The position numbers were made by a program, and so were the translations under genes. Below, piece after piece: positions 5,141 to 64,000 of a stretch of 64,000 bases of DNA. Position 1 is the stretch's first letter, and the number at the start of each line of letters is the position of its first letter. The notes under the pieces are model-generated. The model made no database searches, was not told the DNA's origin, and worked only from the letters and a program-made list of their open reading frames with translations. The stretch is from the NCBI GenBank assembly GCA_977020255.1, contig CDROCS010002546.1:248001-312000 (forward strand), written 5' to 3'. Source of the stretch: Obrimoposthia wandeli (taxonomy: Eukaryota).

Positions 5141-5434
5141 TGTCTAGTGTAAAGGTATCAAGAGGTATCAACACCTATTTTCGTTTATTTGAGAAAGTAC
5201 ACTTTACACTACTTCATTAGCTGCGCAGTGATTACAGGCGATGTTACAGCGTCCCGAGAACCATTTACTAGAGTGGAAAAATAAAGTTATGTGATGTCCA
5301 CAGCAAACAATATTGTTTTTTCTTCGTGAATGGCCGGTTTCCCTATTTGAATGTGTGTACCATTGTTAGGACTCACAGTAGTATTTTATTTTATAAAATA
5401 AGGTCAACATCTTCTATTGAACGGCCTTACGCAC

Positions 5435-5946
5435 CTGATCGCCAGTGTCAGTGTCGACGATGTGCAGAGGGAAGTCGATATTGAGCTCGTCACTGCTGAG
5501 CTCAAAGGAGCGGACGCATTGTTGCAGGTGGAGCTTATCATCTGCCGGTTGCTTCCCCAAAGCTTCCCTTACAGACGGCTCGATAGGAAAGGGCTGCTGT
5601 TGCTGGTGCAGGTGAACGAGGATGAGTGCTGCGCCATGCGGGTTTGGAGCGAGAGACGACGACCGAACTTCCGCACACATAGTGCCCCATCTCGCACCAG
5701 CAGCAGCACCATCAACACCAGCACCAGACACCATCTTACCACGATCTCCAAAGTCAGGTACATGTTCTTGCTGACATTTAGAGCCTCATCCAGTTTGCTC
5801 TCCCACTGCAAACTGGTCTTCACCCATTCTTCCACAACCACTGGACTCTGTGAGCTCTCATCGCCACTGTCGCTCGACTCTACCAACAGCTGAGACGTTG
5901 ACATTTCTTCTTCAATCGAATAACACAAGATGTGTTGGTAACGGTC
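5435..5946 (-). pseudogene. Diverged, frameshifted paralog of the tandem-array coding module
   Basis: Shares ESKL...RRLSLQTR and ALILVHLHQQ..PIEPSVR...DELNIDF...DQVRK with the array module. One frameshift lies near 5635. The acceptor-like TTTTTTCAG| and donor-like CAG|GTGCGT are both phase 0. Confidence 0.8.
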
Positions 5947-6016
5947 CTGAAAAAACATTTTAACAATTAATATGTCAACTTTTCAAAATATTCGATAGAG
6001 TTTTCTATATTTTTTA

Positions 6017-6053
6017 TTAACCCATTATATCACAGCGTCCTCATATGAGGACA
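6017..6053 (+). mobile_element. Solo piggyBac-like terminus
   Basis: TTAA|CCCATTATATCACAGC is followed by the perfect 16-bp palindrome GTCCTCATATGAGGAC (6037-6052). This is the same layout as MER85-type piggyBac ends. No partner end was found. Confidence 0.55.
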
Positions 6054-7232
6054 CTCACATTTTTTATGTGTGGTTATCTAAATATATCGCAATGATTAAA
6101 TTGAATATATGTACCGTATTTATGACAATAATTTTAGTCTAATAATTACACACAGTAAGTATTTTAGTGTATAAGAATGCTCAGATCCTCTACAATACTC
6201 TTTCTTGCTGCCAGATGTGACTTAAAATCTTCGGCGGATCTGCGGCACAACAAAGAACTAGTCTCTCTAGTTCGTTCTTTGGCCATGGAGCCACCTAATC
6301 TTCACTTCAGGAGTTTTAAACATGTTTAAGTACGTTTAGACAATTGCTGCGGTACAGTCGAATCTTCACTTTTTATGGGGGTATTCATTATTAATAGACA
6401 ATACCTCTTTTATTCCAGATTTCACATCGATATCAAATTGAAAAATTCATATAAATTAACTCCTAATTCATTGAAATTAAATCATCTTAACCCAAATTTC
6501 ACACAGGTTTCAAATAAATTGACAAAAATCGATAATTTCACTTCATTAAAACGAAATTAATTAAATGTACGTTAAATTCATTCAAATTAACTCAACATAA
6601 CCTTAAATTTCACATTGATTTCAAATAAATTACTAAATTTTGATTTTAGTTCATTAAAACCAAATTCAATTAAAATTTTGTAACAAAATTCTGGACTTTT
6701 TAGAGCAATTTCCAGAAAAACGCATTTTAGTTTTAGATGAGTTTTGTTAAAACTGATGTTTTGGATTGTAGTTTATGCTTTAAAACCAAAAACTTTACTT
6801 CTCTTCCAGTCGTTTATGGATTGAGTTTTACACATAAATCTCTAGTAGCTTCTCTAATTGATAATTGAAGGATCTTGATGTTTCTAATGTGTCTTCTTTC
6901 TTCCTTGCGAGTCCTCTCACAATATTTTAAGATATTCATCGTATGTTAGAAGTGAATTAAGAATATATTTTACAGTAACTATATGTATATGCTTAATTTT
7001 ATCGATTTGGTATCGATTGTTTCCTTCGCCTTTTAGTGGACCATTTTTCGTAAGCAGAACTGGCGATGTTCGATGAATCAAACATTAAATAAATACTTTT
7101 CAATTAATACACTTCTTTTAATTTATTCAATTTTGTCAAATCTTTCTGCAAGAACATAATTCGATTATTAAAATAATATATATTAGATCAATTTAAAAAT
7201 TATATGAAATTTCAGACAATGTCCTTACGCAC

Positions 7233-7919
7233 CTGATCAACAGTGCCAGTGCCGATGTGGAAGTCGATATTGAGATCATCGCTGCTGAACTCGAAGGTGC
7301 GACCGGAGCGTTGCAGGTGGAGCCTGGCGTCTACTAGTTGCTGACTCGCAGCTACCCGTACAGACGGCTCGATAGGACAGTGCTGGTGTTGCTGATGCAG
7401 GTGCACGAGAATGAGTGCTGCCGCCGTGCGGGTCTGGAGCGAGAGACGACGGCCGCACTCCCGCATACAAAGCGCCACATCTCGCGCCAGTGGTGCAGCC
7501 ATCGATTCCGGCACCAGACCGCACCGCGTTGCGACCTCCACTGCCAGACACACGTTTTCACGAACCTGAGCAATGGCCCCCAGTTTACTCTCGCGCTGCA
7601 AACTGACTACCACATCCGCTTCCCCTGGCAACTGAGCCTTCACCGACTCTTGGCCAGTCAGATGCGACAGTACCTCACACAGCAGCGGTACCAAGTCTGG
7701 GATGTGCTCATGCACGTCTTTCATGCTGATCTCAGCGGATATGCTCGACTTCAGCTCGCACCAATGCTCACATAGCTGCATAACTCTGTTTGCCAAGCTC
7801 AGATCCTCTTCCACAATCTTTCCTGCTGCCAGATGTGACTTAAAATCTTCCAGGAATTTCTTCTGAGACCAGAAACATTGCAGCTTAACTGGAATAGCTT
7901 GGAGACGTGCTTCGTCGAT
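7233..7919 (-). CDS. Array module copy A, 229-codon helix-rich domain of unknown function (probable exon)
   Basis: GC-rich open frame within ORF 7212-7970, bounded by TTTCCAG|ATC and CAG|GTGCGT, both phase 0. Confidence 0.75.
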
Positions 7920-8440
7920 CTGGAAATTATATGTAGAATTTTTTATTTTGACTCCAAATACAGTCTTCATGTTTTAGTTTTTTTATTGCAGAAATACACG
8001 ATTATTATTAGTTATTCAAAGATTTTAAAAAATTATTATATAAAATATTATGAAGATTTCAAAATATTCATGTTATTTTTGAGTGAATCACTTTAAGTAA
8101 ATAACAAATGAAGCTTGTAATAAATAACAAATGAAGCTTGTAAAAAACTAAAAAACTTAAGGCTTTGTTGAACAAGTATCTTTATACAAAATAAGTAATA
8201 ATAAATCAATTTTGAAAATGTCTTGAAGCCAAATTCAAGAAACAAGAAAAGAACTTTTAAAAATAAAATGTATTAAAACATAATTATTATATCTAAAATA
8301 TTCAACATTCTTAAAATTCCAAATTCCAAATATAACCAAATAATATTAATTGAGGTTTATTCCGTTTTGTCTAAATATACAATTTATAAATAACTTTATA
8401 AATAAAGTTGTCAAATAAATTTGATACTGCTTAGTGATGC

Positions 8441-8605
8441 TAGTAGTAAAAAGTGACGATTCGGCGGATCTGCGGCACAACAAAGAACTAGTCTCTCTAG
8501 TTCGTTCTTTGGCCATGGAGCCACCTAATCTTCACTTCAGGAGTTTTAAACATGTTTAAGTACGTTTAGACAATTGCTGCGGTACAGTCGAATCTTCCGT
8601 TTTTA
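8441..8605. other. Fold-back element in each array unit (Polinton-terminus-like, or a structured ncRNA)
   Basis: AGTAGT-AAAAAGTGACGATTCGGC...GTCGAATCTTCACTTTTT, with inner hairpins GAACTAG/CTAGTTC and the palindrome TTAAACATGTTTAA. Other copies lie at ~10671-10833, 12897-13060, 15144-15307 and 17368-17531, plus a 5'-truncated copy at 6230-6375. Confidence 0.55.
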
Positions 8606-9461
8606 GGGGGTATTCATTATTAATAGACAATACCTCTTTTATTCCAGATTTCACATCGATATCAAATTGAAAAATTCATATAAATTAACTCCTAATTCAT
8701 CGAAAATAAATCATCTTAACCCAAATTTCACGCAGGTTTCAAATAAATTGACAAAAATCGATAATTTCACTTCATTAAAACGAAATTAATTAAATGTACG
8801 TTAAATTCATTCAAATTAACTCAACATAACCTTAAATTTCACAATGATTTCAAATAAATTACTAAATTTTGATTTTAGTTCATTAAAACCAAATTCAATT
8901 AAAATTTTGTAACAAAATTCTGGACTTTTAGAGCAATTTCCAAAAATACGCTTTTTTAGTTTTAGATGAATTTTGTTAAAACTGATGTTTTGGATTGTAG
9001 TTTAAGCTTTAAAACCAAAAACTTTACTTCTCTTCCAGTCGTTTATGGATTGAGTTTTACACATAAATCTCTAGTAGCTTCTCTAATTGATAATTGAAGG
9101 ATCTTGATGTTTCTAATGTGTCTTCTTTCTTCCTTGCGAGTTTTCTCACAATTTTTTAAGATATTCATCGTATGTTAGAAGTGAATTAAGAATATATTTT
9201 ACAGTAACTATATGTATATGCTTAATTTTATCGATTTGGTATCGATTGTTTCCTTTGCCTTTTAGTGGACCATTTTTCGTAAGCAGAACTGGCGATGTTC
9301 GATGAACCAAACATTAAATAAATATTTTTCAATGAATACACTTCTTTTAATTTATTCAATTTTGTCAAATCTTTCTGTAAGAACATAATTCGACTTTTCA
9401 AACAATATATATTAGATCAATTTAAAAATTATATGAAATTTCAGACAATGTCCTTACGCAC

Positions 9462-10148
9462 CTGATCAACAGTGCCAGTGCCGATGTGGAAGTCGATATT
9501 GAGATCATCGCTGCTGAACTCGAAGGTGCGACCGGAGCGTTGCAGGTGGAGCCTGGCGTCTACTAGTTGCTGACTCGCAGCTGCCCGTACAGACGGCTCG
9601 ATAGGACAGTGCTGGTGTTGCTGATGCAGGTGCACGAGAATGAGTGCTGCCGCCGTGCGAGTCTGGAGCGAGAGACGACGGCCGCACTCCCGCATACAAA
9701 GCGCCACATCTCGCGCCAGTGGTGCAGCCATCGATTCCGGCACCAGACCGCACCGCGTTGCGACCTCCACTGCCAGACACACGTTTTCACGAACCTGAGC
9801 AATGGCCCCAAGTTTGCTCTCGCGCTGCAAACTGACTTCCACATCCGCTTTCCCTGGCAACTGAGCCTTCACCGACTCTTGGCCAGTCATATGCGACAGT
9901 ACCTCACACAGCAGCGGCACCAAGTCTGGGATGTGCTTATGCACCTCTTTAATGCTGATCTCAGCGAATATGCTCGACTTCAGCTCGCACCAATGCTCAC
10001 ATAGCTGCATAACTCTATTTGCCAAGCTTAGATCCTCTTCCACAATCTTTCCTGCTGCCAGATGTGACTTAAAATCTTCCAGGAATTTCTGTTGAGACCA
10101 GAAACATTGCAGCTTAACTGGAATAGCTCGGAGACGTGCTTCGTCGAT
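9462..10148 (-). CDS. Array module copy B
   Basis: Intact frame and the same splice-like boundaries. It has the most private amino-acid changes of the six copies. Confidence 0.75.
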
Positions 10149-11690
10149 CTGGAAATTATATGTAGAATTTTTTATTTTGACTCCAAATACAGTCTTCATG
10201 TTTTAGTTTTTTTATTGCAGAAATACACGATTATTATTAGTTATTCAAAGATTTTAAAAAATTATTATATAAAATATTATGAAGATTTCAAAATATTCAT
10301 GTTATTTTTGAGTGAATCACTTTAAGTAAATAACAAATGAAGCTTGTAATAAATAACAAATGCAGCTTGTAAAAAAGTAAACAACTTAAGGCTTTGTTGA
10401 ACAAGTATCTTTATACAAAATAAGTAATAATAAATCAATTTTGAAAATGTCTTGAAGCCAAATTCAAGAAACAAGAAAAGAACATTTTAAAATAAAATGT
10501 ATTAAAACATAATTATTATATCTAAAATATTCAACATTCTTAAAATTCCAAATTCCAAATATAATCAAATAATATTAATTGAGGTTTATTCCGTTTTGTC
10601 TAAATATACAATTTATAAATAACTTTATAAATAAAGTTGTCAAATAAATTTGATACTGCTTAGTGTTGCTAGTAGTAAAAGTGACGATTCGGCGGATCTG
10701 CGGCACAACAAAGAACTAGTCTCTCTAGTTCGTTCTTTGGCCATGGAGCCACCTAATCTTCACTTCAGGAGTTTTAAACATGTTTAAGTACGTTTAGACA
10801 ATTGCCGCGGTACAGTCGAATCTTCACTTTTTATGGGGGTATTCATTATTAATAGACAATACCTCTTTTATTCAAGATTTCACATCGATATCAAATTGAA
10901 AAATTCATATAAATTAACTCCTAATTCATCGAAATTAAATCATCGTAACCCAAATTTCACACAGGTTTCAAATAAATTGACAAAAATCGATAATTTCACT
11001 TCATTAAAACGAAATTAATTAAATGTACTTTAAATTCATTCAAATTAACTCAACATAACCTTAAATTTCACATTGATTTCAAATAAATTACTAAATTTTG
11101 ATTTTAGTTCATTAAAACCAAATTCAATTAAAATTTTGTAACAAAATTCTGGACTTTTTAGAGCAATTTCCAGAAAAACGCATTTTAGTTTTAGATGAGT
11201 TTTGTTAAAACTGATGTTTTGGATTGTAGTTTATGCTTTAAAACCAAAAACTTTACTTCTCTTCCAGTCGTTTATGGATTGAGTTTTACACATAAATCTC
11301 TAGTAGCTTCTCTAATTGATAATTGAAGGATCTTGATGTTTCTAATGTGTCTTCTTTCTTCCTTGCGAGTCCTCTCACAATTTTTTAAGATATTCATCGT
11401 ATGTTAGAAGTGAATTAAGAATATATTTTACAGTAACTATATGTATATGCTTAATTTTATCGATTTGGTATCGATTGTTTCCTTCGCCTTTTAGTGGACC
11501 ATTTTTCGTAAGCAGAACTGGCGATGTTCGATGAACCAAACATTAAATAAATATTTTTCAATTAATACACTTCTTTTAATTTATTCAATTTTGTCAAATC
11601 TTTCTGCAAGAACATAATTCGATTATTAAAATAATATATATTAGATCAATTTAAAAATTATATGAAATTTCAGACAATGTCCTTACGCAC

Positions 11691-12374
11691 CTGATCAACA
11701 GTGCCAGTGCCGATGTGGAAGTCGATATTGAGATCATCGCTGCTGAACTCGAAGGTGCGACCGGAGCGTTGCAGGTGGAGCCTGGCGTCTACTAGTTGCT
11801 GACTCGCAGCTACCCGTACAGACGGCTCGATAGGACAGTGCTGGTGTTGCTGATGCAGGTGCACGAGAATGAGTGCTGCCGCCGTGCGGGTCTGGAGCGA
11901 GAGACGGCCGCACTCCCGCATACAAAGCGCCACATCTCGCGCCAGTGGTGCAGCCATCGATTCCGGCACCAGACCGCACCGCGTTGCGACCTCCACTGCC
12001 AGACACACGTTTTCACGAACCTGAGCAATGGCCCCAAGTTTGCTCTCGCGCTGCAAACTGACTTCCACATCCGCTTCCCCTGGCAACTGGGCCTTCACCG
12101 ACTCTTGGCCGGTCAGATGCGACAGTACCTCACACAGCAGCGGCACCAAGTCTGGGATGTGCTCATGCACGTCTTTCATGCTGATCTCAGCGAATATGCT
12201 CGACTTCAGCTCGCACCAATGCTCACATAGCTGCATAACTCTATTTGCCAAGCTTAGATCCTCTTCCACAATCTTTCCTGCTACCAGATGTGACTTAAAA
12301 TCTTCCAGGAATTTCTTCTGAGACCAGAAACATTGCAGCTTAACTGGAATAGCTTGGAGACACGCTTCGTCGAT
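11691..12374 (-). CDS. Array module copy C
   Basis: Intact frame with an in-frame 3-nt deletion (ECGRL instead of ECGRRL). Confidence 0.75.
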
Positions 12375-13917
12375 CTGGAAATTATATGTAGAATTTTTTA
12401 TTTTGACTCCAAATACAGTCTTCATGTTTTAGTTTTTTTATTGCAGAAATACACGATTATTATGAGTTATTCAAAGATTTTAAAAAATTATTATATAAAA
12501 TATTATGAAGATTTCAAAATATTCATGTTATTTTTGAGTGAATCACTTTAAGTAAATAACAAATGAAGCTTGTAATAAATAACAAATGAAGCTTGTAAAA
12601 AAGTAAAAAACTTAAGGCTTTGTTGAACAAGTATCTTTATACAAAATAAGTAATAATAAATCAATTTTGAAAATGTCTTGAAGCCAAATTCAAGAAACAA
12701 GAAAAGAACATTTTAAAATAAAATGTATTAAAACATAATTATTATATCTAAAATATTCAACATTCTTAAAATTCCAAATTCCAAATATAACCAAATAATA
12801 TTAATTGAGGTTTATTCCGTTTTGTCTAAATATACAATTTATAAATAACTTTATAAATAAAGTTGTCAAATAAATTTGATACTGCTTAGTGATGCTAGTA
12901 GTAAAAAGTGACGATTCGGCGGATCTGCGGCACAACAAAGAACTAGTCTCTCTAGTTCGTTCTTTGGCCATGGAGCCACCTAATCTTCACTTCAGGAGTT
13001 TTAAACATGTTTAAGTACGTTTAGACAATTGCCGCGGTACAGTCGAATCTTCACTTTTTATGGGGGTATTCATTATTAATAGACAATACCTCTTTTATTC
13101 AAGATTTCACATCGATATCAAATTGAAAAATTCATATAAATTAACTCCTAATTCATCGAAATTAAATCATCGTAACCCAAATTTCACACAGGTTTCAAAT
13201 AAATTGACAAAAATCGATAATTTCACTTCATTAAAACGAAATTAATTAAATGTACTTTAAATTCATTCAAATTAACTCAACATAACCTTAAATTTCACAT
13301 TGATTTCAAATAAATTACTAAATTTTGATTTTAGTTCATTAAAACCAAATTCAATTAAAATTTTGTAACAAAATTCTGGACTTTTTAGAGCAATTTCCAG
13401 AAAAACGCATTTTAGTTTTAGATGAGTTTTGTTAAAACTGATGTTTTGGATTGTAGTTTATGCTTTAAAACCAAAAACTTTACTTCTCTTCCAGTCGTTT
13501 ATGGATTGAGTTTTACACATAAATCTCTAGTAGCTTCTCTAATTGATAATTGAAGGATCTTGATGTTTCTAATGTGTCTTCTTTCTTCCTTGCGAGTTTT
13601 CTCACAATTTTTTAAGATATTCATCGTATGTTAGAAGTGAATTAAGAATATATTTTACAGTAACTATATGTATATGCTTAATTTTATCGATTTGGTATCG
13701 ATTGTTTCCTTCGCCTTTTAGTGGACCATTTTTCGTAAGCAGAACTGGCGATGTTCGATGAACCAAACATTAAATAAATATTTTTCAATTAATACACTTC
13801 TTTTAATTTATTCAATTTTGTCAAATCTTTCTGCAAGAACATAATTCGATTTTTAAAATAATATATATTAGATCAATTTAAAAATTATATGAAATTTCAG
13901 ACAATGTCCTTACGCAC

Positions 13918-14604
13918 CTGATCAACAGTGCCAGTGCCAATGTGGAAGTCGATATTGAGATCATCGCTGCTGAACTCGAAGGTGCGACCGGAGCGTTGCA
14001 GGTGGAGCCTGGCGTCTACTAGTTGCTGACTCGCAGCTACCCGTACAGACGGCTCGATAGGACAGTGCTGGTGTTGCTGATGCAGGTGCACGAGAATGAG
14101 TGCTGCCGCCGTGCGAGTCTGGAGCGAGAGACGACGGCCGCACTCCCGCATACAAAGCGCCACATCTCGCGCCAGTGGTGCAGCCATCGATTCCGGCACC
14201 AGACCGCACCGCGTTGCGACCTCCACTGCCAGACACACGTTTTCACGAACCTGAGCAATGGCCCCAAGTTTGCTCTCGCGCTGCAAACTGACTTCCACAT
14301 CCGCTTCCCCTGGCAACTGGGCCTTCACCGACTCTTGGCCGGTCAGATGCGACAGTACCTCACACAGCAGCGGCACCAAGTCTGGGATGTGCTCATGCAC
14401 GTCTTTCATGCTGATCTCAGCGAATATGCTCGACTTCAGCTCGCACCAATGCTCACATAGCTGCATAACTCTGTTTGCCAAGCTCAGATCCTCTTCCACA
14501 ATCTTTCCTGCTGCCAGATGTGACTTAAAATCTTCCAGGAATTTCTTCTGAGACCAGAAACATTGCAGCTTAACTGGAATAGCTTGTAGACGTGCTTCGT
14601 CGAT
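13918..14604 (-). CDS. Array module copy D
   Basis: Intact frame and the same boundaries. Confidence 0.75.
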
Positions 14605-16166
14605 CTGGAAATTATATGTAGAATTTTTTATTTTGACTCCAAATACAGTCTTCATGTTTTATTTTTTTATTGCAGAAATACACAATTATTATGAGTTATT
14701 CAAAGATTTTAAAAAATTATTATATAAAATATTATGAAGATTTCAAAATATTCATGTTATTTTTGAGTGAATCACTTTAAGTAAATAACAAATGAAGCTT
14801 GTAATAAATAACAAATGAAGCTTGTAATAAATAACAAATGAAGCTTGTAAAAAACTAAAAAAGGCTTTGTTGAACAAGTATCTTTATACAAAATAAGTAA
14901 TAATAAATCAATTTTGAAAATGTCTTGAAGCCAAATTCAAGAAACAAGAAAAGAACATTTTAAAATAAAATGTATTAAAACATAATTATTATATCTAAAA
15001 TATTCAACATTCTTAAAATTCCAAATTCCAAATATAACCAAATAATATTAATTGAGGTTTATTCCGTTTTGTCTAAATATACAATTTATAAATAACTTTA
15101 TAAATAAAGTTGTCAAATAAATTTGATACTGCTTAGTGATGCTAGTAGTAAAAAGTGACGATTCGGCGGATCTGCGGCACAACAAAGAACTAGTCTCTCT
15201 AGTTCGTTCTTTGGCCATGGAGCCACCTAATCTTCACTTCAGGAGTTTTAAACATGTTTAAGTACGTTTAGACAATTGCTGCGGTACAGTCGAATCTTCA
15301 CTTTTTATGGGGGTATTCATTATTAATAGACAATACCTCTTTTATTCCAGATTTCACATCGATATCAAATTGAAAAATTCATATAAATTAACTCCTAATT
15401 CATCGAAATTAAATCATCTTAACCCAAATTTCACACAGGTTTCAAATAAATTGACAAAAATCGATAATTTCACTTCATTAAAACGAAATTAATTAAATGT
15501 ACGTTAAATTCATTCAAATTAACTCAACATAACCTTAAATTTCACATTGATTTCAAATAAATTACTAAATTTTGATTTTTAGTTCATTAAAACCAAATTC
15601 AATTAAAATTTTGTAACAAAATTCTGGACTTTTTAGAGCAATTTCCAGAAAAACGCATTTTAGTTTTAGATGAGTTTTGTTAAAACTGATGTTTTTGGAT
15701 TGTAGTTTATGCTTTAAAACCAAAAACTTTACTTCTCTTCCAGTCGTTTATGGATTGAGTTTTACACATAAATCTCTAGTAGCTTCTCTAATTGATAATT
15801 GAAGGATCTTGATGTTTCTAATGTGTCTTCTTTCTTCCTTGCGAGTCCTCTCACAATTTTTTAAGATATTCATCGTATGTTAGAAGTGAATTAAGAATAT
15901 ATTTTACAGTAACTATATGTATATGCTTAATTTTATCGATTTGGTATCGATTGTTTCCTTCGCCTTTTAGTGGACCATTTTTCGTAAGCAGAACTGGCGA
16001 TGTTCGATGAATCAAACATTAAATAAATACTTTTCAATTAATACACTTCTTTTAATTTATTCAATTTTGTCAAATCTTTCTGCAAGAACATAATTCGATT
16101 ATTAAAATAATATATATTAGATCAATTTAAAAATTATATGAAATTTCAGACAATGTCCTTACGCAC

Positions 16167-16850
16167 CTGATCAACAGTGCCAGTGCCGATGTGGAAGTCG
16201 ATATTGAGATCATCGCTGCTGAACTCGAAGGTGCGACCGGAGCGTTGCAGGTGGAGCCTGGCGTCTACTAGTTGCTGACTCGCAGCTACCCGTACAGACG
16301 GCTCGATAGGACAGTGCTGGTGTTGCTGATGCAGGTGCACGAGAATGAGTGCTGCCGCCGTGCGGGTCTGGAGCGAGAGACGGCCGCACTCCCGCATACA
16401 AAGCGCCACATCTCGCGCCAGTGGTGCAGCCATCGATTCCGGCACCAGACCGCACCGCGTTGCGACCTCCACTGCCAGACACACGTTTTCACGAACCTGA
16501 GCAATGGCCCCCAGTTTACTCTCGCGCTGCAAACTGACTACCACATCCGCTTCCCCTGGCAACTGAGCCTTCACCGACTCTTGGCCAGTCAGATGCGACA
16601 GTACCTCACACAGCAGCGGTACCAAGTCTGGGATGTGCTCATGCACGTCTTTCATGCTGATCTCAGCGGATATGCTCGACTTCAGCTCGCACCAATGCTC
16701 ACATAGCTGCATAACTCTGTTTGCCAAGCTCAGATCCTCTTCCACAATCTTTCCTGCTGCCAGATGTGACTTAAAATCTTCCAGGAATTTCTTCTGAGAC
16801 CAAAAACATTGCAGCTTAACTGGAATAGCTTGGAGACAAGCTTCGTCGAT
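16167..16850 (-). CDS. Array module copy E
   Basis: Intact frame with the 3-nt deletion. The upstream ATG is mutated to ATT while TTTCCAG is kept. Confidence 0.75.
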
Positions 16851-18388
16851 CTGGAAATTATATGTAGAATTTTTTATTTTGACTCCAAATACAGTCTTAA
16901 TGTTTTAGTTTTTTTATTGCAGAAATACACGATTATTATGAGTTATTCAAAGATTTAAAAAAATTATTATATAAAATATTATGAAGATTTCAAAATATTC
17001 ATGTTATTTTTGAGTGAATCACTTTAAGTAAATAACAAATGAAGCTTGTAATAAATAACAAATGAAGCTTGTAAAAAACTAAAAAAGGCTTTGTTGAACA
17101 AGTATCTTTATACAAAATAAGTAATAATAAATCAATTTTGAAAATGTCTTGAAGCCAAATTCAAGAAACAAGAAAAGAACATTTTAAAATAAAATGTATT
17201 AAAACATAATTATTATATCTAAAATATTCAACATTCTTAAAATTCCAAATTCCAAATATAACCAAATAATATTAATTGAGGTTTATTCCGTTTTGTCTAA
17301 ATATACAATTTATAAATAACTTTATAAATAAAGTTGTCAAATAAATTTGATACTGCTTAGTGATGCTAGTAGTAAAAAGTGACGATTCGGCGGATCTGCG
17401 GCACAACAAAGAACTAGTCTCTCTAGTTCGTTCTTTGGCCATGGAGCCACCTAATCTTCACTTCAGGAGTTTTAAACATGTTTAAGTACGTTTAGACAAT
17501 TGCTGCGGTACAGTCGAATCTTCACTTTTTATGGGGGTATTCATTATTAATAGACAATACCTCTTTTATTCCAGATTTCACATCGATATCAAATTGAAAA
17601 ATTCATATAAATTAACTCCTAATTCATCGAAATTAAATCATCTTAACCCAAATTTCACACAGGTTTCAAATAAATTGACAAAAATCGATAATTTCACTTC
17701 ATTAAAACGAAATTAATTAAATGTACGTTAAATTCATTCAAATTAACTCAACATAACCTTAAATTTCACATTGATTTCAAATAAATTACTAAATTTTGAT
17801 TTTAGTTCATTAAAACCAAATTCAATTAAAATTTTGTAACAAAATTCTGGACTTTTTAGAGCAATTTCCAGAAAAACGCATTTTAGTTTTAGATGAGTTT
17901 TGTTAAAACTGATGTTTTGGATTGTAGTTTATGCTTTAAAACCAAAAACTTTACTTCTCTTCCAGTCGTTTATGGATTGAGTTTTACACATAAATCTCTA
18001 GTAGCTTCTCTAATTGATAATTGAAGGATCTTGATGTTTCTAATGTGTCTTCTTTCTTCCTTGCGAGTCCTCTCACAATTTTTTAAGATATTCATCGTAT
18101 GTTAGAAGTGAATTAAGAATATATTTTACAGTAACTATATGTATATGCTTAATTTTATCGATTTGGTATCGATTGTTTCCTTCGCCTTTTAGTGGACCAT
18201 TTTTCGTAAGCAGAACTGGCGATGTTCGATGAATCAAACATTAAATAAATACTTTTCAATTAATACACTTCTTTTAATTTATTCAATTTTGTCAAATCTT
18301 TCTGCAAGAACATAATTCGATTATTAAAATAATATATATTAGATCAATTTAAAAATTATATGAAATTTCAGACAATGTCCTTACGCAC

Positions 18389-19075
18389 CTGATCAACAGT
18401 GCCAGTGCCGATGTGGAAGTCGATATTGAGATCATCGCTGCTGAACTCGAAGGTGCGACCGGAGCGTTGCAGGTGGAGCCTGGCGTCTACTAGTTGCTGA
18501 CTCGCAGCTACCCGTACAGACGGCTCGATAGGACAGTGCTGGTGTTGCTGATGCAGGTGCACGAGAATGAGTGCTGCCGCCGTGCGGGTCTGGAGCGAGA
18601 GACGACGGCCGCACTCCCGCATACAAAGCGCCACATCTCGCGCCAGTGGTGCAGCCATCGATTCCGGCACCAGACCCCACCGCGTTGCGACCTCCACTGC
18701 CAGACACACGTTTTCACGAACCTGAGCAATGGCCCCCAGTTTGCTCTCGCGCTGCAAACTGACTTCCACATCCGCTTCCCCTGGCAACTGGGCCTTCACC
18801 GACTCTTGGCCGGTCAGATGCGACAGTACCTCACACAGCAGCGGCACCAAGTCTGGGATGTGCTCATGCACGTCTTTCATGCTGATCTCAGCGAATATGC
18901 TCGACTTCAGCTCGCACCAATGCTCACATAGCTGCATAACTCTGTTTGCCAAGCTCAGATCCTCTTCCACAATCTTTCCTGCTGCCAGATGTGACCTAAA
19001 ATCTTCCAGGAATTTCTTCTGAGACCAGAAACATTGCAGCTTAACTGGAATAGCTTGGAGACGTGCTTCGTCGAT
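18389..19075 (-). CDS. Array module copy F (array edge)
   Basis: Intact frame. Sequence upstream of the acceptor diverges from the other copies (MNETILALE versus MKTVFGV). Confidence 0.75.
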
Positions 19076-54914: not shown

Positions 54915-55799
54915 TTTTCAGAACATTATAACTCATAACAATTTGAAATACAATCTCCGATATTTGATTCAATTTGAACGTTCCAGAACATAAAAATATA
55001 TAACAATTTGGTGAGCCAAAATATAAAATACAAAACAAATTTTCCTTAATGGATTTGCAACAATGCACAGAGGCTGACCTAAAAGAGATAAAAATTTAAA
55101 ATACAAAATTATATCAAGTAAACCAAGAAACAGATTTTATATATGCAGAAGATTTTGATTGTAGAGTACGCATAGAGATATTCATAACAGATTGTGAACA
55201 GCATAGTCACAACTCAATAGTAAAACCTGCACTATGGAAAACACTACTGATAGTCAAAGGTTTAAATTTTAAATATGTTTTTACTACTGGAGAAACACTA
55301 TTCTACCTTATGTTCCTTAGAGATCCTCAAATGTATATTAATCTCACTTTAATACAACCTACAACACAGTATCTAGAAATACCAGAATATAAAAAAGAAA
55401 TTAAAAAAAGCCTAAAACTAACATTTGAAAAAGCTAAGTTATTTATAAAATATATTCAAAAAAACTATAAAGAATATTACAACAGATCAACTAGATCATC
55501 AGAATTAAAAGTTGGATGTAAAATAATGAATCACAACTCACAAATTACAACCAGTCTATATCACAAATTGGCTATGCTATACAAAGGTTCATATACAATA
55601 ATTAGTAATTACGGAACGAATATAACAGCCAAACTTGAAAATGACCCAAAACTAAAAGAAATAAGAGTACACATAAATTTATATCAAAAAGTTATTGAAA
55701 ACTAATAAACTTGAGTAACAAAAAAATTAATCACATATTTGAAATAAAAAAAATGTACTCACATGAAGTAATTAGTAAATGAAAAGCTGTAAACTGAAT
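54915..55799 (+). mobile_element. Gypsy-type integrase tail, copy 2
   Basis: ORF 55310-55705, preceded by the TTGETLFYLMFLRDP post-catalytic motif. Confidence 0.75.
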
Positions 55800-56895: not shown

Positions 56896-57419
56896 AATGA
56901 ATTAGTTGGAAATAATAATCAAATATAACAATTATCAAATATAACATTATTGTTGGGGTTTCTATACGAGACTTGTATAGATCCTCTTATGTGCGGAGGG
57001 CCCCAACGTGAGTTCGAATAGAAGCAGGTCTTAAAGTTGGTCGTGGCCTACTTAGTGTTATGGTTGCCTATCTCTATTACTTATCTGAAGGTGTTTGGTT
57101 TGACGTCTCTTAATCTGAAGGGTTTAAAACAACGTTTTCTAATGTAGGAAATCGTTTATTGGTAACACACTAAACTAAAACACAACAATACGTTTACGTA
57201 CGTATTTCTAAAAAGTATAGTAAAAATTCCTAAGACTTCTGTAAGTCTCTACAAGTGGGGATGAACCACGTATCGATTTTATGTTAAGGTTAATCGAGAT
57301 CTTAGAGTTGTTCCCCTAACTCTCGTGTCTACAATGTTGTGGGGCAAAACTTCTTAAAAAATGGACATACTTAATCGTGTCGACAATTAACGTAGGGCAA
57401 ATGCAACTTTAAAACGGGA

Positions 57420-58190
57420 AAGTATAAATTAATACTCAAAACTTTAAATGGTATAAATTTAATACTCAAAACTTTCAGACTTAAAATAGAATTGTCTAAA
57501 TTTAATACTCCAAACGGTATAAATTTAATACGCAAAACTTTCAACTTAATATAGAAATGTCTAAATTTAATACTCCAAATGGTATAAATTTAATACGCAA
57601 AACTTTCAACATAATATAGAAATGTCTAAATTTAATACTCCAAATGGTATAAATTTAATACGCAAAACTTTCAACTTAATATAGAAATGTCTAAATTTAA
57701 TACTCTAAACGGTATAAATTTAATTCACACAAATTTTCAACTTAAAATAGAATTGTCTAAATTTAATACTCCACACGGTATAAATTTAATACGCAAAACT
57801 TTCAACTTAATATAGAAATGTCTAAACTTAATACTCCACACGGTATAAATTTAATACGCAAAACTTTCAACATAAATTAGAATTGTCTAAATTTAATACT
57901 CCAAATGGTATAAATTTAATACGCAAAACTTTCAACTTAATATAGAAATGTCTAAATTTAATACTCCAAACGGTATAAATTTAATTCACACAAATTTTCA
58001 ACTTAAAATAGAATTGTCTAAATTTAATACTCCAAACGGTATAAATTTAATACGCAAAACTTTCAACTTAAAATAGAATTGTCTAAATTTAATACTCCAA
58101 ACGGTATAAATTTAATTCACACAAATTTTCAACTTAAAATAGAATTGTCTAAATTTAATACTCGAAACGGTATAAATTTAATTCACACCA
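57420..58190. repeat. 65/66-bp tandem array, about 11.5 copies, two unit variants
   Basis: GGTATAAATT recurs at 57450, 57516, 57581, 57646, 57711, 57777, 57842, 57907, 57972, 58038, 58103 and 58169. Each unit has two AAATTTAAT-based halves. Confidence 0.97.
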
Positions 58191-58239
58191 AATTTGTGGG
58201 TATTTATACCTTTAGTTTAAGATAATGGCTGGAAGTGCG

Positions 58240-58737
58240 CTGGAGATTGGGTTGAGAAACTGTAGTTGAGAACTGGAGATTGGGTTGAGAAACTGTAGTT
58301 GAGAACTGGAGATTGGGTTGAGAAACTGTAGTTGAGAACTGGAGATTGGGTTGAGAACTGGAGATTGGCCGATCTGGAACAGTGAGACAATTGGAACTGA
58401 TTCCAACTCGGAGGGAATTGCTGAGCTGAATCGGATAGAGTAGTGCGATCGGCTGGCGCGGGATCGGATAGAGTAGTGCGATCGGCTGGTGCGGAATCGG
58501 ATAGAGTAGTGCGATCGGCTGGCGCGGGATCGGATAGAGTAGTGCGATCGGCTGGCGCGGGATCGGATTGATGAGATTGTTGTATTTCTGTAATGATCGA
58601 ATTAATGTGGCTCAAAATTAGGAGCGCTCACCCAAGTTTTTCCGCTGTTGGTGTGTATCCGGCGTGACTTTTCTTCTTCTTGCGACAATGACTTTTCTTC
58701 TTCTTCTGACAATGACTTTTCTTCCTCTTCTGACTGG
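58240..58737. repeat. Three successive short arrays of 33, 33 and 24 bp
   Basis: CTGGAGATTGGGTTGAGAAACTGTAGTTGAGAA about 4 times, TCGGATAGAGTAGTGCGATCGGCTGGCGCGGGA about 4 times, and GACTTTTCTTCTTCTTCTGACAAT about 3 times. Confidence 0.93.
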
Positions 58738-59391
58738 TTGAGGCGACTTATATAGTCGGTCGTCGAGTGGAGGCAATTTCCACCTGGCTCTTGAAAGTCA
58801 GTGGAATTAAAATCTAATTAAAATAATATGCCTACGTTGGCGAATTTTTCCTGATTGACGTTTTTCCTTTTTCTTCTTAGTTCCCTTTTCCAATTAACTC
58901 TTATTCTTATTTTTGCACTTTTGTATTAATAATCTTAACCTATATATACGACACACTACACACGACCTTCGTGGTCCTATTAATATTTACCCCTGATTTT
59001 ATCCTCTAATATTTTAACTTAATTTTAAATATTTAATTTTCAACCTTGCTTTCAAGGATTTTTATTTTAGTATAAATTTAACTAATTCTTTTAATTTTTT
59101 AATTCCTAAATCTAACATATCTCGGGGGTTCCAAAAAAGTTACGTCCCCGGAACGTATCGATTTTACTCTTATAAGCCTCTGGCTGTTGATTTTAGGCTC
59201 ATCCCTACAAAATCAGTCATTCAATTCATCAAACATGCCCAAAACTTTAAAAGAAACTCGGTTTTTTCTAAAAAAGTGAACATTTGGACAGAGTCTCAAA
59301 TATTCACTAATTTATTACTTATACACAAAAATGGCTACATAGATAAGTAAGGAATTAGGAAGGAAAGAGGGAAGGAAAGAATGTAGTGTTA

Positions 59392-59928
59392 TCAAATGTC
59401 GTTAGTAAGGTCGATTGTAATTGTCGGCTGGTTCCGACTATTTAGGTAGCGCATGACCTGCTCCAGGGGTAGGTCTGGAAAGGACGGACTGTCCCCGTTG
59501 TAGAGGTGCAGTTGCTGGCTCCGGATCAGGTGTGGGCTCTCGACAAACAGGTCAAAATATTGCCCGTTCAGCTCATGGTTCTCCATCCATAAGCGTCTGG
59601 CCTGGAACCATGAATGGCAGTCGCGGCTAGACCGCCATCGCTCGCGGATGCCCAATTGTGTGTCGCGACGGCGTGCGAGACACACGTAGCACTGGCAGTG
59701 TATGCCACCAATGCAACTGGCAGGTGATCGGTTGCCCTTGGATCGTCCACGGCACTGGAGCGTCCACTTGCAAAAGGGTGCCCGGCACAATGGGCATGTG
59801 ATTTTGCCAGGGGGTCGAGCCTTGGCCCACAAATAGAGGCACGACTCGTGGAATTTGTGACGGCAGCCGACAGGGGATGCCGATGCCGTCCAAATTTTCT
59901 CCATGCATACTGAACACTTCATCTGCAC
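59392..59928 (-). CDS. RING-H2 protein 3 (putative E3 ubiquitin ligase)
   Basis: CSVC...CRHKFHESC...CPLCR is a C3H2C3 ring, followed by CIGGIHCQCYVC. Confidence 0.85.
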   Translation of the reverse strand: MQMKCSVCMEKIWTASASPVGCRHKFHESCLYLWAKARPPGKITCPLCRAPFCKWTLQCRGRSKGNRSPASCIGGIHCQCYVCLARRRDTQLGIRERWRSSRDCHSWFQARRLWMENHELNGQYFDLFVESPHLIRSQQLHLYNGDSPSFPDLPLEQVMRYLNSRNQPTITIDLTNDI

Positions 59929-60274
59929 AAGAAAATGATTCCTTTCAACTTGGGGTTCAACTGTTTTCGTCGTTAATTTATAAGGTTAAAATTTTAGTTT
60001 CAAAATGAACCTTTAGTTTTTTAATCCTACCGAGTTTTGTTCTGATTTTAGGCATGTTTACACATTCACACTAGGCATAAAAAATTGTCTTTTAGAATTT
60101 CAGTATAATAATTACAATTTCAGTTAAACAACATACATAAAAATGGTAATGGTCATTTTACAGTTTCACAAGATTATACAATTATGATTACAATTATGGT
60201 AGCTAATTTATCGCGGTATGCGATACACAGGGTAGTTCATGATGTCACGTTCAAAGTCAGAAAGTTACCTTCGA

Positions 60275-60580
60275 TTATTGCTGGGAGTTGGGCTGGCCTG
60301 TGCGTCGCTCCTCCACGCAGAACGAGCACCAGCAATCGCAGATAGTTTTCCAGCAGTGTACTATGGGTACCACTGCTTGGAGGCTGTCCTGGTTGTACAC
60401 GTAGTGCACTGAGAAGGTCGCTCTGCACATCGGGCAGGTTGGGAAGTCGAGGGGATTGTTGCTGTTGGCGATGGGAATCCACGTCTCGAGGCATTCGATG
60501 TGGAAAAGGTGGTCGCAGTTGTTGGGCTTGGTGTAGAAGTCCACGATGCTCTCGTAGCAGATGGAACATTCTCCAGACAT
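60275..60580 (-). CDS. RING-H2 protein 2
   Basis: CSIC...CDHLFHIEC...CPMCR, followed by CWKTICDCWCSFC. Confidence 0.88.
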   Translation of the reverse strand: MSGECSICYESIVDFYTKPNNCDHLFHIECLETWIPIANSNNPLDFPTCPMCRATFSVHYVYNQDSLQAVVPIVHCWKTICDCWCSFCVEERRTGQPNSQQ

Positions 60581-60640
60581 TACTGTGAGAGGGTTGATGT
60601 TGAATTTGGGCTCGATTGAGGACTGGTGATTGTGTGATGT

Positions 60641-60940
60641 TTACACAAAAGTGGTCGGATTTTGTCGTTCTGACAAACAGTAGTAACACCAACACTCTCC
60701 GAAATTCTTCCAACAGAATACCACCTGTACATATACATCCTCTTGGTTGGGTTCTAACATGATGAATCTTGCGAATTGTCTTCTGCATACAGGGCAACAA
60801 GGGTATGTTGGATGTCCGAACTGTCCATAAGTTCTGATCCATGTCGATAAACATTCCTCGTGGTGTAAATGGTTGCAGGTTTCGGGTCTTGTTCTTCGTT
60901 CGGTTAGATCTTCCAAACATATTGGGCATTCTTCGGACAT
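60641..60940 (-). CDS. RING-H2 protein 1
   Basis: CPIC...CNHLHHEEC...CPVCR, followed by CWKNFGECWCYYC. A TATATAAAA lies upstream. Confidence 0.88.
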   Translation of the reverse strand: MSEECPICLEDLTERRTRPETCNHLHHEECLSTWIRTYGQFGHPTYPCCPVCRRQFARFIMLEPNQEDVYVQVVFCWKNFGECWCYYCLSERQNPTTFV

Positions 60941-61062
60941 TCTAAATACATGATGATGATTAATTTCTACATGAGTTTTATATATTTCTACTATTTGTAC
61001 AATTGCTTCTAGGTATTTCTACATATTTCATACATTAATTATCTACAACCTCCTCTGACTTA

Positions 61063-63021
61063 TCATATCTTGATGGGAGGCGGAGGTAAGGGTCGCAATT
61101 CCACTTCCTCCATGGTGGGTGTGTCACAGCATCGCAATCCTTCGCATTTTCGCCGTATTCTTGGGCATACTTGACTGCCTTTTACACACACGACTGTCAA
61201 TAGAACCACTGCTGTTGACACTACGGCCATTCCAATTAGAGCATTGACCGCTGTTACTCTGCTATCTGATGATTGATAATCATACTTCATTTTGTTGTTT
61301 GTCGGTTCGAATGACATTTCCATGGATTTTGATCGGTTTCCATGTATTATGTCCGATTTTCTAAAAATTCGTGGATTTGGGTGTTTTGTTTCTGGTAGAA
61401 CAGGTATTATTATTTTGGATTGGAAATGATGTTTGGGATCTAGTGGGATCGTTCCCCTCACTCTTGTCCTCTTAATAACTGTACTTTGGTTTCTGGAATT
61501 TAGCTCTTTTTCTTTCGCTTCTGTCTTTGTTCTGATCACTTTCGGCTTTTTGGAATGGTGTTTACTTTCGTTTACCTTTGCCTTCTTTTTGACTAGGATT
61601 GGTTTTTTGGGAATGATTTTCCTGGGTTTGATACTTATACCGGATCTACGAAATCGACGGTTCTGGTATCTTAGAGTTATGTAGAATATTTCACCTGTTA
61701 TTACCATGATTATGGTCGAGGTCTCTGTAGCATTACTGGGAATTCGGTTACACAGGCATTCTGTATCAAAATGTGGTACTAACATTTGGTTTTGGATTTC
61801 GAATCTGATTCCGCCATCTGGATTGGGACACGACACTGTTACTCTGTCGGTTTCTAGCAATCTGAAAAATATTCTAACGGAATTCCATACGGTTTTGCGT
61901 CGTCTACCTGTGATCATAATCCTGTCGACAATTTTCCAGATGCGCTCATCTCTAGGCAATATTAATGACTTTGTTCGGATACTTTGGATAATCCGCTTCT
62001 TCTTTGATATTGTTATCCGTAGGTATAACACTCTTTCATGATAGAATAATATTAGTTTGTAATCGGGTGTACTTTGGTCGATCTTTATTCTGACCTGTCG
62101 GATGACATACAATTTCTGATCGATATTGTCGGTTGCTGACGTCTGTAGATGAATGTCTACTACGTGATTTGTTTTTAACAGAGGGATTTCTATGTATAAC
62201 GCCCGTATTACATCTTGTCTCCATTTACTGATCATGATCTCATAACTAGCCTTGGTAGTGGTAATTTGTATGATCAGCATGATTCCTATGATCGTTCGAT
62301 TCCTAAACTCAGGAACTTCAATGAAACAACTCAAATTACTCATATAGTATGGTCTTTCCTCGATATGTTCATATATCGTTGGCTGGTACTCCGGTGCTGG
62401 TTCATCTAGGAATGGTGGTCTTGGTATACTTGTGTTGAATTTTTGTAAATTCATTTGACCTGTTCGTCTTGCGAGATCATGACGCTTCTTTTTTGATCTC
62501 AACTCTATCTTTGTACAACAAAACAAGATGAGTAATATTAATATTATGAATCCAATGATCAGTGCGAGTATTGGATTAACCAATTCTAGAATACCATAAC
62601 GTACTGCTGGTATACCTTTACTCTTGATGGTTAATATTTTAAATTTGTGTGCACTTTGGTTGGACATGTCACTGAGAAGTACTATTTTAGTTTGTCCAAA
62701 TATGTAGTCTTCACATGTGACAATTCTAATTCCATAATGTCCATTAAGTGTTTTCATTTCGGTCGCTGGAACTATACACATTCGTCCTGGACATCCTTTT
62801 ACACACATGATCATTACGGCTTTACTGTGGGACGTCTTGATTATTTCGAGGGTGTTGTCTAGATTTCTCAAATGTAGATTATATTCGGATAATGTCATCA
62901 TTTCAGCTTTACTGGTTGGCATGGCTTGTAGTACCAATCCAATTACTACTCCATAGATCAATCCTTGTGCAACGGTGCACAGGGCCTTGACTGACCTTTT
63001 GCAAAGGGTTTTAATTATCAT
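61063..63021 (-). CDS. 652-aa membrane protein or polyprotein of unknown family
   Basis: Long intact ORF with an N-terminal signal-like segment, a TM at ~150-169, an internal signal-like segment at ~243-258, RFRR at 456-459, several NxS/T sequons and a TM at ~591-613. Confidence 0.8.
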   Translation of the reverse strand: MIIKTLCKRSVKALCTVAQGLIYGVVIGLVLQAMPTSKAEMMTLSEYNLHLRNLDNTLEIIKTSHSKAVMIMCVKGCPGRMCIVPATEMKTLNGHYGIRIVTCEDYIFGQTKIVLLSDMSNQSAHKFKILTIKSKGIPAVRYGILELVNPILALIIGFIILILLILFCCTKIELRSKKKRHDLARRTGQMNLQKFNTSIPRPPFLDEPAPEYQPTIYEHIEERPYYMSNLSCFIEVPEFRNRTIIGIMLIIQITTTKASYEIMISKWRQDVIRALYIEIPLLKTNHVVDIHLQTSATDNIDQKLYVIRQVRIKIDQSTPDYKLILFYHERVLYLRITISKKKRIIQSIRTKSLILPRDERIWKIVDRIMITGRRRKTVWNSVRIFFRLLETDRVTVSCPNPDGGIRFEIQNQMLVPHFDTECLCNRIPSNATETSTIIMVITGEIFYITLRYQNRRFRRSGISIKPRKIIPKKPILVKKKAKVNESKHHSKKPKVIRTKTEAKEKELNSRNQSTVIKRTRVRGTIPLDPKHHFQSKIIIPVLPETKHPNPRIFRKSDIIHGNRSKSMEMSFEPTNNKMKYDYQSSDSRVTAVNALIGMAVVSTAVVLLTVVCVKGSQVCPRIRRKCEGLRCCDTPTMEEVELRPLPPPPIKI

Positions 63022-63465
63022 TCATTTGAGTGATATCTGTTTCTGATTGGATCGTTTTGTTGTCTGTCGTTGTTTTGACATCTCTTCGATTCCATTTTTT
63101 CCGATAATCAACTGTACCTGTTTACCTTGTATCGTCAACTTTCCGAATCCATTTTTGGCGGACAAGCATGTTTTATGTCCTTCCATCGTTTCAATTATCA
63201 CTCTCTTACTTCCATACTCACGTGTTTTGATGACATCGCCGTCGAATATATACGTCGGTCCTTTTGTATCAGCATCTTTTTGTATTTCCTTTACAATTCG
63301 TTTCCTTCGCTTGCATCCGGCGAATGTTGTTGATATTCGGTCAAGTGTGCGCTGTCGGTCAGCTTCGTAATCTATTCGGAATTGATTCAGTATTCTGTTT
63401 TGTGGGTAAAATATCGCTTCATTTACTATGTTGTCCTCGATCCTTTCGTCTAGATACACAAGCAC
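63022..63465 (-). CDS. 147-aa basic ORF, same frame as and abutting the 652-aa ORF
   Basis: Only a GTG start is available, and the frame is open back to ~63510. Its TGA is immediately followed by the ATG of the next ORF. Confidence 0.6.
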   Translation of the reverse strand: MLVYLDERIEDNIVNEAIFYPQNRILNQFRIDYEADRQRTLDRISTTFAGCKRRKRIVKEIQKDADTKGPTYIFDGDVIKTREYGSKRVIIETMEGHKTCLSAKNGFGKLTIQGKQVQLIIGKNGIEEMSKQRQTTKRSNQKQISLK

Positions 63466-64000
63466 TTTGTTCGTCGGTCCATTTGGTCTTAAACTGAAAT
63501 CTTTTACTGTCGGTTCTCATAGATCGGAGACATTTTCGGATGATCCATACATCAATTAATCCTAACAACACTAATAGCATCATCAGTGCCGGCGTATGGT
63601 ACTGTATGGTGTAGTTGTGGATTTCGTTGAACCAGGAACTATTTCCGTGGTTGGAGCCTATCTCTTGTGCTCCCGTTATCGGCATTAGACAACTTAACAA
63701 GCCTATCGCTAGCAATCTTTGGTATTGAAAGCTGGGCACTGTTGTTGTAGCTTCATTTGTTTCTCGTTGTTGTTTCCTCTTTTCGGCGTACTTCTCTATT
63801 TCTCGAACGAGTAACGGTTTGAATTCCGTATCTGGTCTATTCTGTTTGATGTAGACCATCGCTTCTTCTGGTGTGTGACCATGGTACTCTACCAACAAGG
63901 ATACACCTATGGTAGGCGCTAACATTGTACCTTTTTCTGATATATCAGAACGCCGTTTCCTTCTGTGACTTCGGCTTGGATGGTTTGAGTCAATTTCGTC
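63419..64000 (-). CDS. 5'-truncated ORF: DSP-phosphatase-like C-terminal helices, then an internal signal peptide and TM
   Basis: Frame is open to the window edge. TIGVSLLVEYHGHTPEEAMVYIKQNRP...P...IEKY follows the post-P-loop pattern of dual-specificity phosphatases. It is followed by LLAIGLLSCLMPITGA and ALMMLLVLLGLIDVWII. Confidence 0.7.
   Translation of the reverse strand, partial: DEIDSNHPSRSHRRKRRSDISEKGTMLAPTIGVSLLVEYHGHTPEEAMVYIKQNRPDTEFKPLLVREIEKYAEKRKQQRETNEATTTVPSFQYQRLLAIGLLSCLMPITGAQEIGSNHGNSSWFNEIHNYTIQYHTPALMMLLVLLGLIDVWIIRKCLRSMRTDSKRFQFKTKWTDEQSACVSRRKDRGQHSK

Follow-up and report, generated by a model that had tools for sequence, protein, structure and literature searches.

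We analyzed a 64,000-nucleotide stretch of the Obrimoposthia wandeli assembly (contig CDROCS010002546.1, positions 248,001 to 312,000; hereafter the window), focusing on six co-oriented open reading frames (ORFs) on its minus strand at 59392-64000. It is very probable that this region is the 3′ accessory end of an approximately 23-kb, recently multiplied Ty3/Gypsy long terminal repeat (LTR) retrotransposon of Burro-like layout, whose RING genes are likely spliced and whose products likely alter host ubiquitin and kinase signaling. An earlier note on this DNA had described an intact, virus-like cassette of six ORFs and placed it at one end of a young, possibly undescribed endogenous virus or giant mobile element, with replication genes past position 64000. 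The placement was right: the rest of the element reaches approximately 15 kb past the window edge on the same contig, and reverse transcriptase (RT), RNase H (RH), and integrase (IN) were found there, in an LTR retrotransposon and not a large DNA virus. The frames, of 193 (open at the window edge), 164, 652, 99, 101, and 176 amino acids (aa), are indeed all on the minus strand, three of them encode RING-H2 proteins as proposed, and GC content is higher across the frame region than in the 50-57 kb flank (41.4% vs 29.6%). The proposed A-rich coding strand stands as a skew (A 35%, T 23%) but not as an A excess, since A makes up 36% of that strand in the flank as well. The features are listed below; coordinates past 64000 continue the window numbering (position on the contig, C2546 in our handles, equals window position + 248,000).

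56951-59117, minus strand: 3′ LTR, 2,167 bp, TG...CA; ends conserved, interior filled with minisatellites and different between copies; AATAAA approximately 210 nt from the end
59392-59922, minus strand: RING3 ORF, 176 aa; RING-H2 plus four-Cys motif; C-terminus variable; YAG directly before the ATG
60275-60580, minus strand: RING2 ORF, 101 aa; RING-H2 and a four-Cys motif; a YAG 2 nt upstream of its ATG
60641-60940, minus strand: RING1 ORF, 99 aa; RING-H2 and a four-Cys motif; a YAG 1 nt upstream of its ATG
61063-64000, minus strand: C-terminal approximately 980 codons of a predicted polyprotein of approximately 5,400 aa; broken near 63,931, near 63,490, and at 63,022-63,024
61063-62298, minus strand: predicted membrane unit 3; signal-like stretch 62248-62298, beta-rich ectodomain 61654-62247, K/T/P-rich stalk, transmembrane segment (TM) 61183-61251, Pro-rich tail
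62299-62964, minus strand: predicted membrane unit 2; signal 62905-62964, ectodomain 62593-62904, TM 62515-62571, cytoplasmic tail with Pro/Tyr motifs 62362-62400
63490-63715, minus strand: predicted membrane unit 1; signal-like stretch 63668-63715, short ectodomain with two N-glycosylation sequons, TM 63539-63589
63788-64000, minus strand: C-terminal part of a pseudo-phosphatase (dual-specificity phosphatase [DSP] family, without the catalytic Cys), continuing past the window edge
64089-66333, minus strand, past the window: three related repeats of approximately 95 aa, and DSP
66315-67901, minus strand, past the window: integrase
67892-74692, minus strand, past the window: protease-BIR-RING-protease-RT-RNase H, and env
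74696-77485, minus strand, past the window: gag, with a leader between gag and the 5′ LTR
78489-79175, minus strand, past the window: 5′ LTR, of which just 687 bp match the 3′ LTR, followed by Polinton-like genes

Pfam searches with the natural frames of two other copies recovered a CCHC motif, a PF24664 fusion protein, two aspartic proteases (PR) flanking BIR and RING, RT, RH, IN, and DSPc in two stretches. The PR-RT-RH-IN order is that expected of Ty3/Gypsy, env is of the chuvirus/gB type (PF24664, E 4e-95), and BIR (PF00653, E 8e-10) and RING (PF13920, E 3.5e-11) are both well matched, with a second BIR as a weak match. We found no DNA polymerase, capsid, or packaging ATPase between the LTRs. 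Six full copies measure 23.0-23.5 kb; their LTR pairs are 99.0-99.85% identical in four cases, 97% in one, and 85% in one. A 4-bp target duplication was present in 5 of the 8 copies having both outer ends, and the primer site matches host tRNA-Met genes. That site lies 8 nt from the 5′ LTR end, which is unusual for minus-strand priming, and the conserved sequence ahead of the 3′ LTR (59118-59140), where a polypurine tract is expected, is not purine-rich, which is unusual for plus-strand priming. The assembly also holds tandem arrays of tRNA genes at C2252:200-11858 and on C2837 (tRNA-Met where scanned), whose 3′ end matches the primer site.

The family is both large and young. When 62000-64000 was used as a query, all 40 scored places were at least 98% identical, the window itself counted, and exact-pattern counts in the genome gave 4,562 matches to a RING1 21-mer and 4,883 to the LTR-primer junction, with 0 for the controls. 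Together with the 4-bp target duplications, this copy number excludes a single-copy host gene or a contaminant contig. Provided that the 4,500-4,900 copies are mostly near full length, the family would account for approximately 8% of the assembly as an upper estimate. At C91:184001-204000 we observed a tandem array with a 5.2-kb period, made of a deletion derivative that retains the LTR, the leader, and the three RING genes only.

The LTR interior (window 57320-58900) is variable: 1,257 of 1,722 ordered pairs of 42 3′ LTRs have less than 10% of the interior in common, each LTR carrying its own minisatellites. These 42 came from 29 of 40 sampled copies (6 lacked a detected LTR start and 5 an end within the stretch) and 13 of 16 widely fetched copies. 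AATAAA is kept in 41 of them, and in the read contigs of one sample, depth over the LTR interior of this copy was approximately 1,000-fold below that over the cassette. Since the interior lies between TATA-like boxes and the conserved AATAAA, it may be a very long R region.

We compared the 8 junctions between the nine frames of this copy with the natural frames of 15 other copies, picked among the closest matches. The junctions were open in 11/11, 11/11, 14/15, 14/15, 15/15, 11/15, 15/15, and 14/15 of the copies covering each, and the three at or inside 59392-64000 were open in 11, 15, and 14 of 15. Since the junctions are open in most copies, we predict a single ORF of approximately 5,400 codons running from gag to 61063. 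The cassette is not undamaged, contrary to the earlier claim: an in-frame stop (63,022-63,024) and two frameshifts (near 63,490 and near 63,931) interrupt this copy, and because of these breaks the tail had been misread in part. Nor are there six genes, as the 193-, 164-, and 652-aa frames read as one in most other copies; the three RING-H2 ORFs are the only separate genes among the six. Private indels in the 40 sampled copies (drawn from the first 100 listed of the 4,562 pattern matches, contig starts avoided) comprised 247 frameshifting and 26 that were not, and part of them may be assembly errors. Two natural frames each hold the motif [IL]xM[LI][RK], picked post hoc, three times at domain borders (shuffle P 0.007 and 0.004), and this motif may mark sites of the first protease. 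A homologue search with the tail returned a DSP as its sole match, an env-region homologue search among longer proteins found none, and a by-eye "IPT-like" label for the three post-integrase repeats found no support.

Behind the polyprotein stop, with no LTR between, lie the three RING ORFs. All match RING-H2 above the Pfam cutoff (PF13639, E 3e-9 to 9e-8), with RING2 37% and RING3 29% identical to RING1. They have in common a second four-Cys motif after the RING, which no Pfam or PDB match covers, and RING3 exists in several C-terminal types among copies. A YAG stands 0-2 nt ahead of the RING1, RING2, and RING3 ATGs in 54/55, 52/54, and 49/50 copies, respectively (copies with the start found, out of 56), compared to 48 of 444 ATGs in the element, and the RING3 acceptor is fixed although its spacer varies. 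In this copy the AGs of these putative acceptors are at 60942 (RING1), 60583 (RING2), and 59923 (RING3). Donor-like CAG/GTAAAT repeats start approximately 80 nt after the primer site in all 11 copies with a primer site. Flatworms also resolve operons by spliced-leader trans-splicing (PMC12582326). These motifs suggest that splicing probably gives access to the RING ORFs, either in cis from the donor-like site that follows the primer site or through spliced-leader trans-splicing.

It is unlikely, by comparison, that the RING ORFs are functional and expressed without splicing, through an internal promoter, re-initiation, or stop read-through. The spacers are short (approximately 120 nt before RING1 and 60 nt before RING2), RING1 and RING2 share one frame with one stop between them in the copies listed, and no spliced retrocopy was found, all of which would fit unspliced expression. 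On the other hand, a YAG precedes all three ATGs, which has a probability of approximately 0.001 given the 10.8% background, and RING3 sits 350 nt further on, in another frame in this copy. A 229-234-aa frame overlapping RING1 and RING2 was rejected as a gene, with an omega of 1.3-1.7 and a presence in 11/40 copies, yet it showed no shared stop change.

We next consider selection, using omega obtained by simple counting with no transition correction. Variants in at least 3 of the 40 copies gave an omega of 0.03-0.44 over 11 segments with 0 shared stops, compared to 0.38-0.61 and 40 stops for singleton variants. Of the sense frames, the annotated one gave the lowest omega everywhere but in segment 2170-2250 and the short RING1-RING2 spacer. 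All cargo segments are under purifying selection. This makes it improbable that the tail and RING ORFs are functionless captured host pieces with the YAGs as leftover host exon edges. Individual copies are broken, omega rises to 0.29-0.44 across the final 420 codons and to 0.35 for RING1, and captured exons would carry acceptors along; against this, no segment has a shared stop, omega is 0.03-0.17 in the repeats, DSP, pseudo-DSP, TM1, TM2, and RING2, each of the 150 top RING2 matches has an open frame, at 98-100% identity, and the RING3 acceptor is kept inside a variable spacer. The continuous frame from gag to the tail refutes the view that the cassette is cargo of an endogenous large DNA virus or Polinton. 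Large DNA viruses commonly have RING and DSP genes, RING relatives (32-38%) occur on five IMG/VR contigs, and Polinton-like genes adjoin the 5′ LTR of this copy, but the LTR pair encloses the cassette, which in other copies is in frame with RT and integrase, the viral matches cover the RING core only (residues 1-60), and the Polinton-like block lies outside the coding region of the element.

What had been called a phosphatase remnant of the VH1 type corresponds to the last part of a DSP domain (PF00782, E 1.7e-6) that is conserved but catalytically dead; it stands behind a DSP with an intact HCxxGxSRS motif that lies just past the window and ahead of the pseudo-DSP in the polyprotein; the motif was seen in 30/40 copies. 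The best PDB match of the DSP was DUSP10 (E 3e-23), with no poxvirus VH1 in the 60 matches shown of 88, so by its sequence the predicted phosphatase is closer to animal MAP-kinase phosphatases. In a literature search, "dual specificity phosphatase" was absent among the matches listed.

Between the pseudo-DSP and the polyprotein stop, we predict three membrane units. Hydropathy defines units 1 and 2 as well as the unit 3 TM, while the unit 3 signal was called by eye, below the hydropathy cutoff. Unit 2 has a weak WBP-1 match (E 0.014, below the Pfam cutoff). The model of the last ectodomain (61654-62247) is a beta-sandwich with a seven-strand first domain and predicted local distance difference test (pLDDT) values of 49-75. 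The best hits of a VIA fold search were C2-type sandwiches (Z 8.4 and 7.6, the latter with a root-mean-square deviation of 3.7 over 108 aligned); FN3 was not in its leading rows, which does not exclude FN3, and Foldseek found nothing at E 0.001 in PDB or BFVD. ESM Atlas matches, at no more than 0.81, are leads only, the 687-aa tail folded from single sequence had a pLDDT of 39, too low for use, and a search with the ectodomain profile recovered its own seeds only.

We compared seven relatives (P0006, P0009, P0011, P0015, P0028, P0030, and P0060), which are high-identity pol picks among 150 listed, with 42-54% pol identity to the element. A hydrophobic stretch and ectodomain follow the integrase in 7/7, and a C-terminal TM is over the cutoff in 4/6 scanned and also visible in P0030. 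A post-integrase membrane-protein plan is common to the element and its relatives. An FN3-type motif occurs in the post-integrase ectodomain of 5/7 relatives and of a smaller sister family in the same genome, and a profile of the five relatives and two sister copies gave 22 PDB matches (receptors, adhesion proteins, and a chitinase; best E 0.0011), all of which we take to be FN3-bearing. From this common plan we infer that the ectodomains of the element and its relatives may be homologous and may serve in attachment.

Several observations weigh against our interpretation. The last ectodomain showed no match to the relatives' profile (hhalign probability <1%, and none in the hidden Markov model search either). 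The whole polyprotein is in one frame in 0/16 widely fetched copies, and DSP-to-TM2 is in one frame in only 8/40. The ubiquitin-like (E 0.0014) and Bcl-2-like (E 0.051) matches are in the right order and below the Pfam cutoff, and a PDB search gave no Bcl-2 match. A spliced-retrocopy probe had one match, which is not a RING start, and none of 8 internal-deletion junctions inspected joins GT to AG. In segment 2170-2250, another frame has the lower omega (0.23 vs 0.33). Finally, all putative functions are assigned from domain families.

We propose that the proteases within the polyprotein, together with signal peptidase acting at internal signal-like stretches, would cleave it, and that the RING ORFs would be translated from spliced messages, in cis from the donor-like site or by spliced-leader trans-splicing. 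The RING genes would serve the element by altering host ubiquitin signaling, the DSP could dampen stress MAP-kinase signaling while the pseudo-DSP binds or regulates, and the BIR-RING and Bcl-2-like domains may block cell death, keeping the producing cell alive. Tentatively, the last membrane unit could be a surface partner of the fusion protein. A post-integrase surface protein common to relatives would give enveloped elements a candidate receptor-binding partner, and use of the acceptors would mean lentivirus-like or operon-like accessory-gene expression in a Gypsy element. The family keeps putative host-signaling cargo under selection and adds testable E3 ligases and a MAP-kinase-phosphatase-like pair.

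With regard to the host, mitochondrial-type COX1 occurs in 8 near-equal places, most on large contigs; in the one of the eight that was read, AAA is Asn and ATA is Ile, best fitting table 9. This table is common to flatworms and echinoderms, and together with the Burro-like layout it points to a flatworm host. Bacterial-type COX1 genes free of stops are also numerous in the assembly, and an animal COX1 of table 5 occurs at least once, so foreign contigs are included; the element, present at thousands of sites, has target duplications where these were checked. Next to the shortened 5′ LTR, at 79427-86767, lies a Polinton/Maverick-like block (integrase-chromodomain by Pfam, the rest by eye), and a similar block interrupts the C1537 copy. 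At approximately 5000-19000, the window holds an array of ~2.2-kb units of alternating GC, with a 23-bp repeat at 8098, 10327, 12553, 14782, and 17029.

Among known systems, the closest in layout is Burro (Schmidtea mediterranea Burro1-4/GYPSM1 and a Dugesia tigrina relative), described in PMC6431247 as >30 kb with one ~5,000-aa ORF comprising Gag, SUMO-like, Bcl-2, in-frame env, and BIR; PMC13465017 cites a report that Burro1 BIR-RING (B-IAP) protects planarian stem cells. Our element likewise has a single gag-env-pol ORF of this size class, here assembled from overlapping natural frames of several copies, with Gag-CCHC and BIR plus RING domains, thousands of copies, a likely flatworm host, and a mononegavirus-type env in frame between gag and pol (between the Bcl-2-like candidate and protease); its candidate ubiquitin/SUMO-like and Bcl-2-like domains are both weak matches. 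Since this backbone matches the published layout, the element is not of an undescribed kind, as had been thought possible. It differs in length (23 kb vs >30 kb), in having one CCHC, and in having two proteases. No ankyrin or MATH_TRAF Pfam match was found here, domains that vary among Burro elements, nor a dUTPase-like one, for which the published Burro call had needed HHpred. The post-integrase DSP pair, the membrane units, and the three downstream RING-H2 ORFs do not appear in the portion of the Burro description available. We file the element as Burro-like and not as Burro because 23.0-23.5 kb falls short of the >30 kb feature; the likeness rests on layout.

GAG-ENV-POL errantiviruses with an HSV/gB-type env, described from Platyhelminthes, Nematoda, and Bryozoa in PMC13524379, have the same gene order and likely the same fusion-protein class. 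The main text of that article nowhere uses the words "accessory", "phosphatase", "apoptosis", "fibronectin", or "Burro", and the available portions of PMC12440569 and PMC8532177 yielded no cargo description. Among the relatives, P0009, P0015, and P0060 have a PF24664 env before pol, and P0006 and P0009 have two proteases, as in the element. The sister family (contigs C430, C2708, C1708, C538, C937, C749, and C1824) encodes gag-env-PR-RT-RH-IN-membrane tail in one 2,911-aa frame without extra cargo, with env-like sequence in C430; a fragment at window 55310-55705 is 66% identical to its integrase end. Unlike the element, neither the relatives nor C430 had a detectable BIR, DSP, or RING-H2, and their FN3-type motif has no sequence match in the element.

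Complex retroviruses such as lentiviruses and foamy viruses have a donor behind the primer site and 3′ accessory ORFs with their own acceptors, and their accessory proteins target the ubiquitin system. A rather doubtful extension of our findings is that the element is a "complex retrovirus" of invertebrates, descended from Gypsy, that still passes in particle form from one host cell to another. It would have a two-part envelope (a class III-type fusion protein before pol and a separate attachment protein cut from the polyprotein end), accessory ubiquitin ligases expressed by splicing, a phosphatase pair, and LTRs whose interiors evolve much more quickly than the genes. The element is predicted to work like complex retroviruses in its donor/acceptor layout and ubiquitin-directed accessory genes; unlike them, it has a Ty3/Gypsy RT, RNase H, and integrase, carries env in frame before pol, and encodes RING domains of its own.

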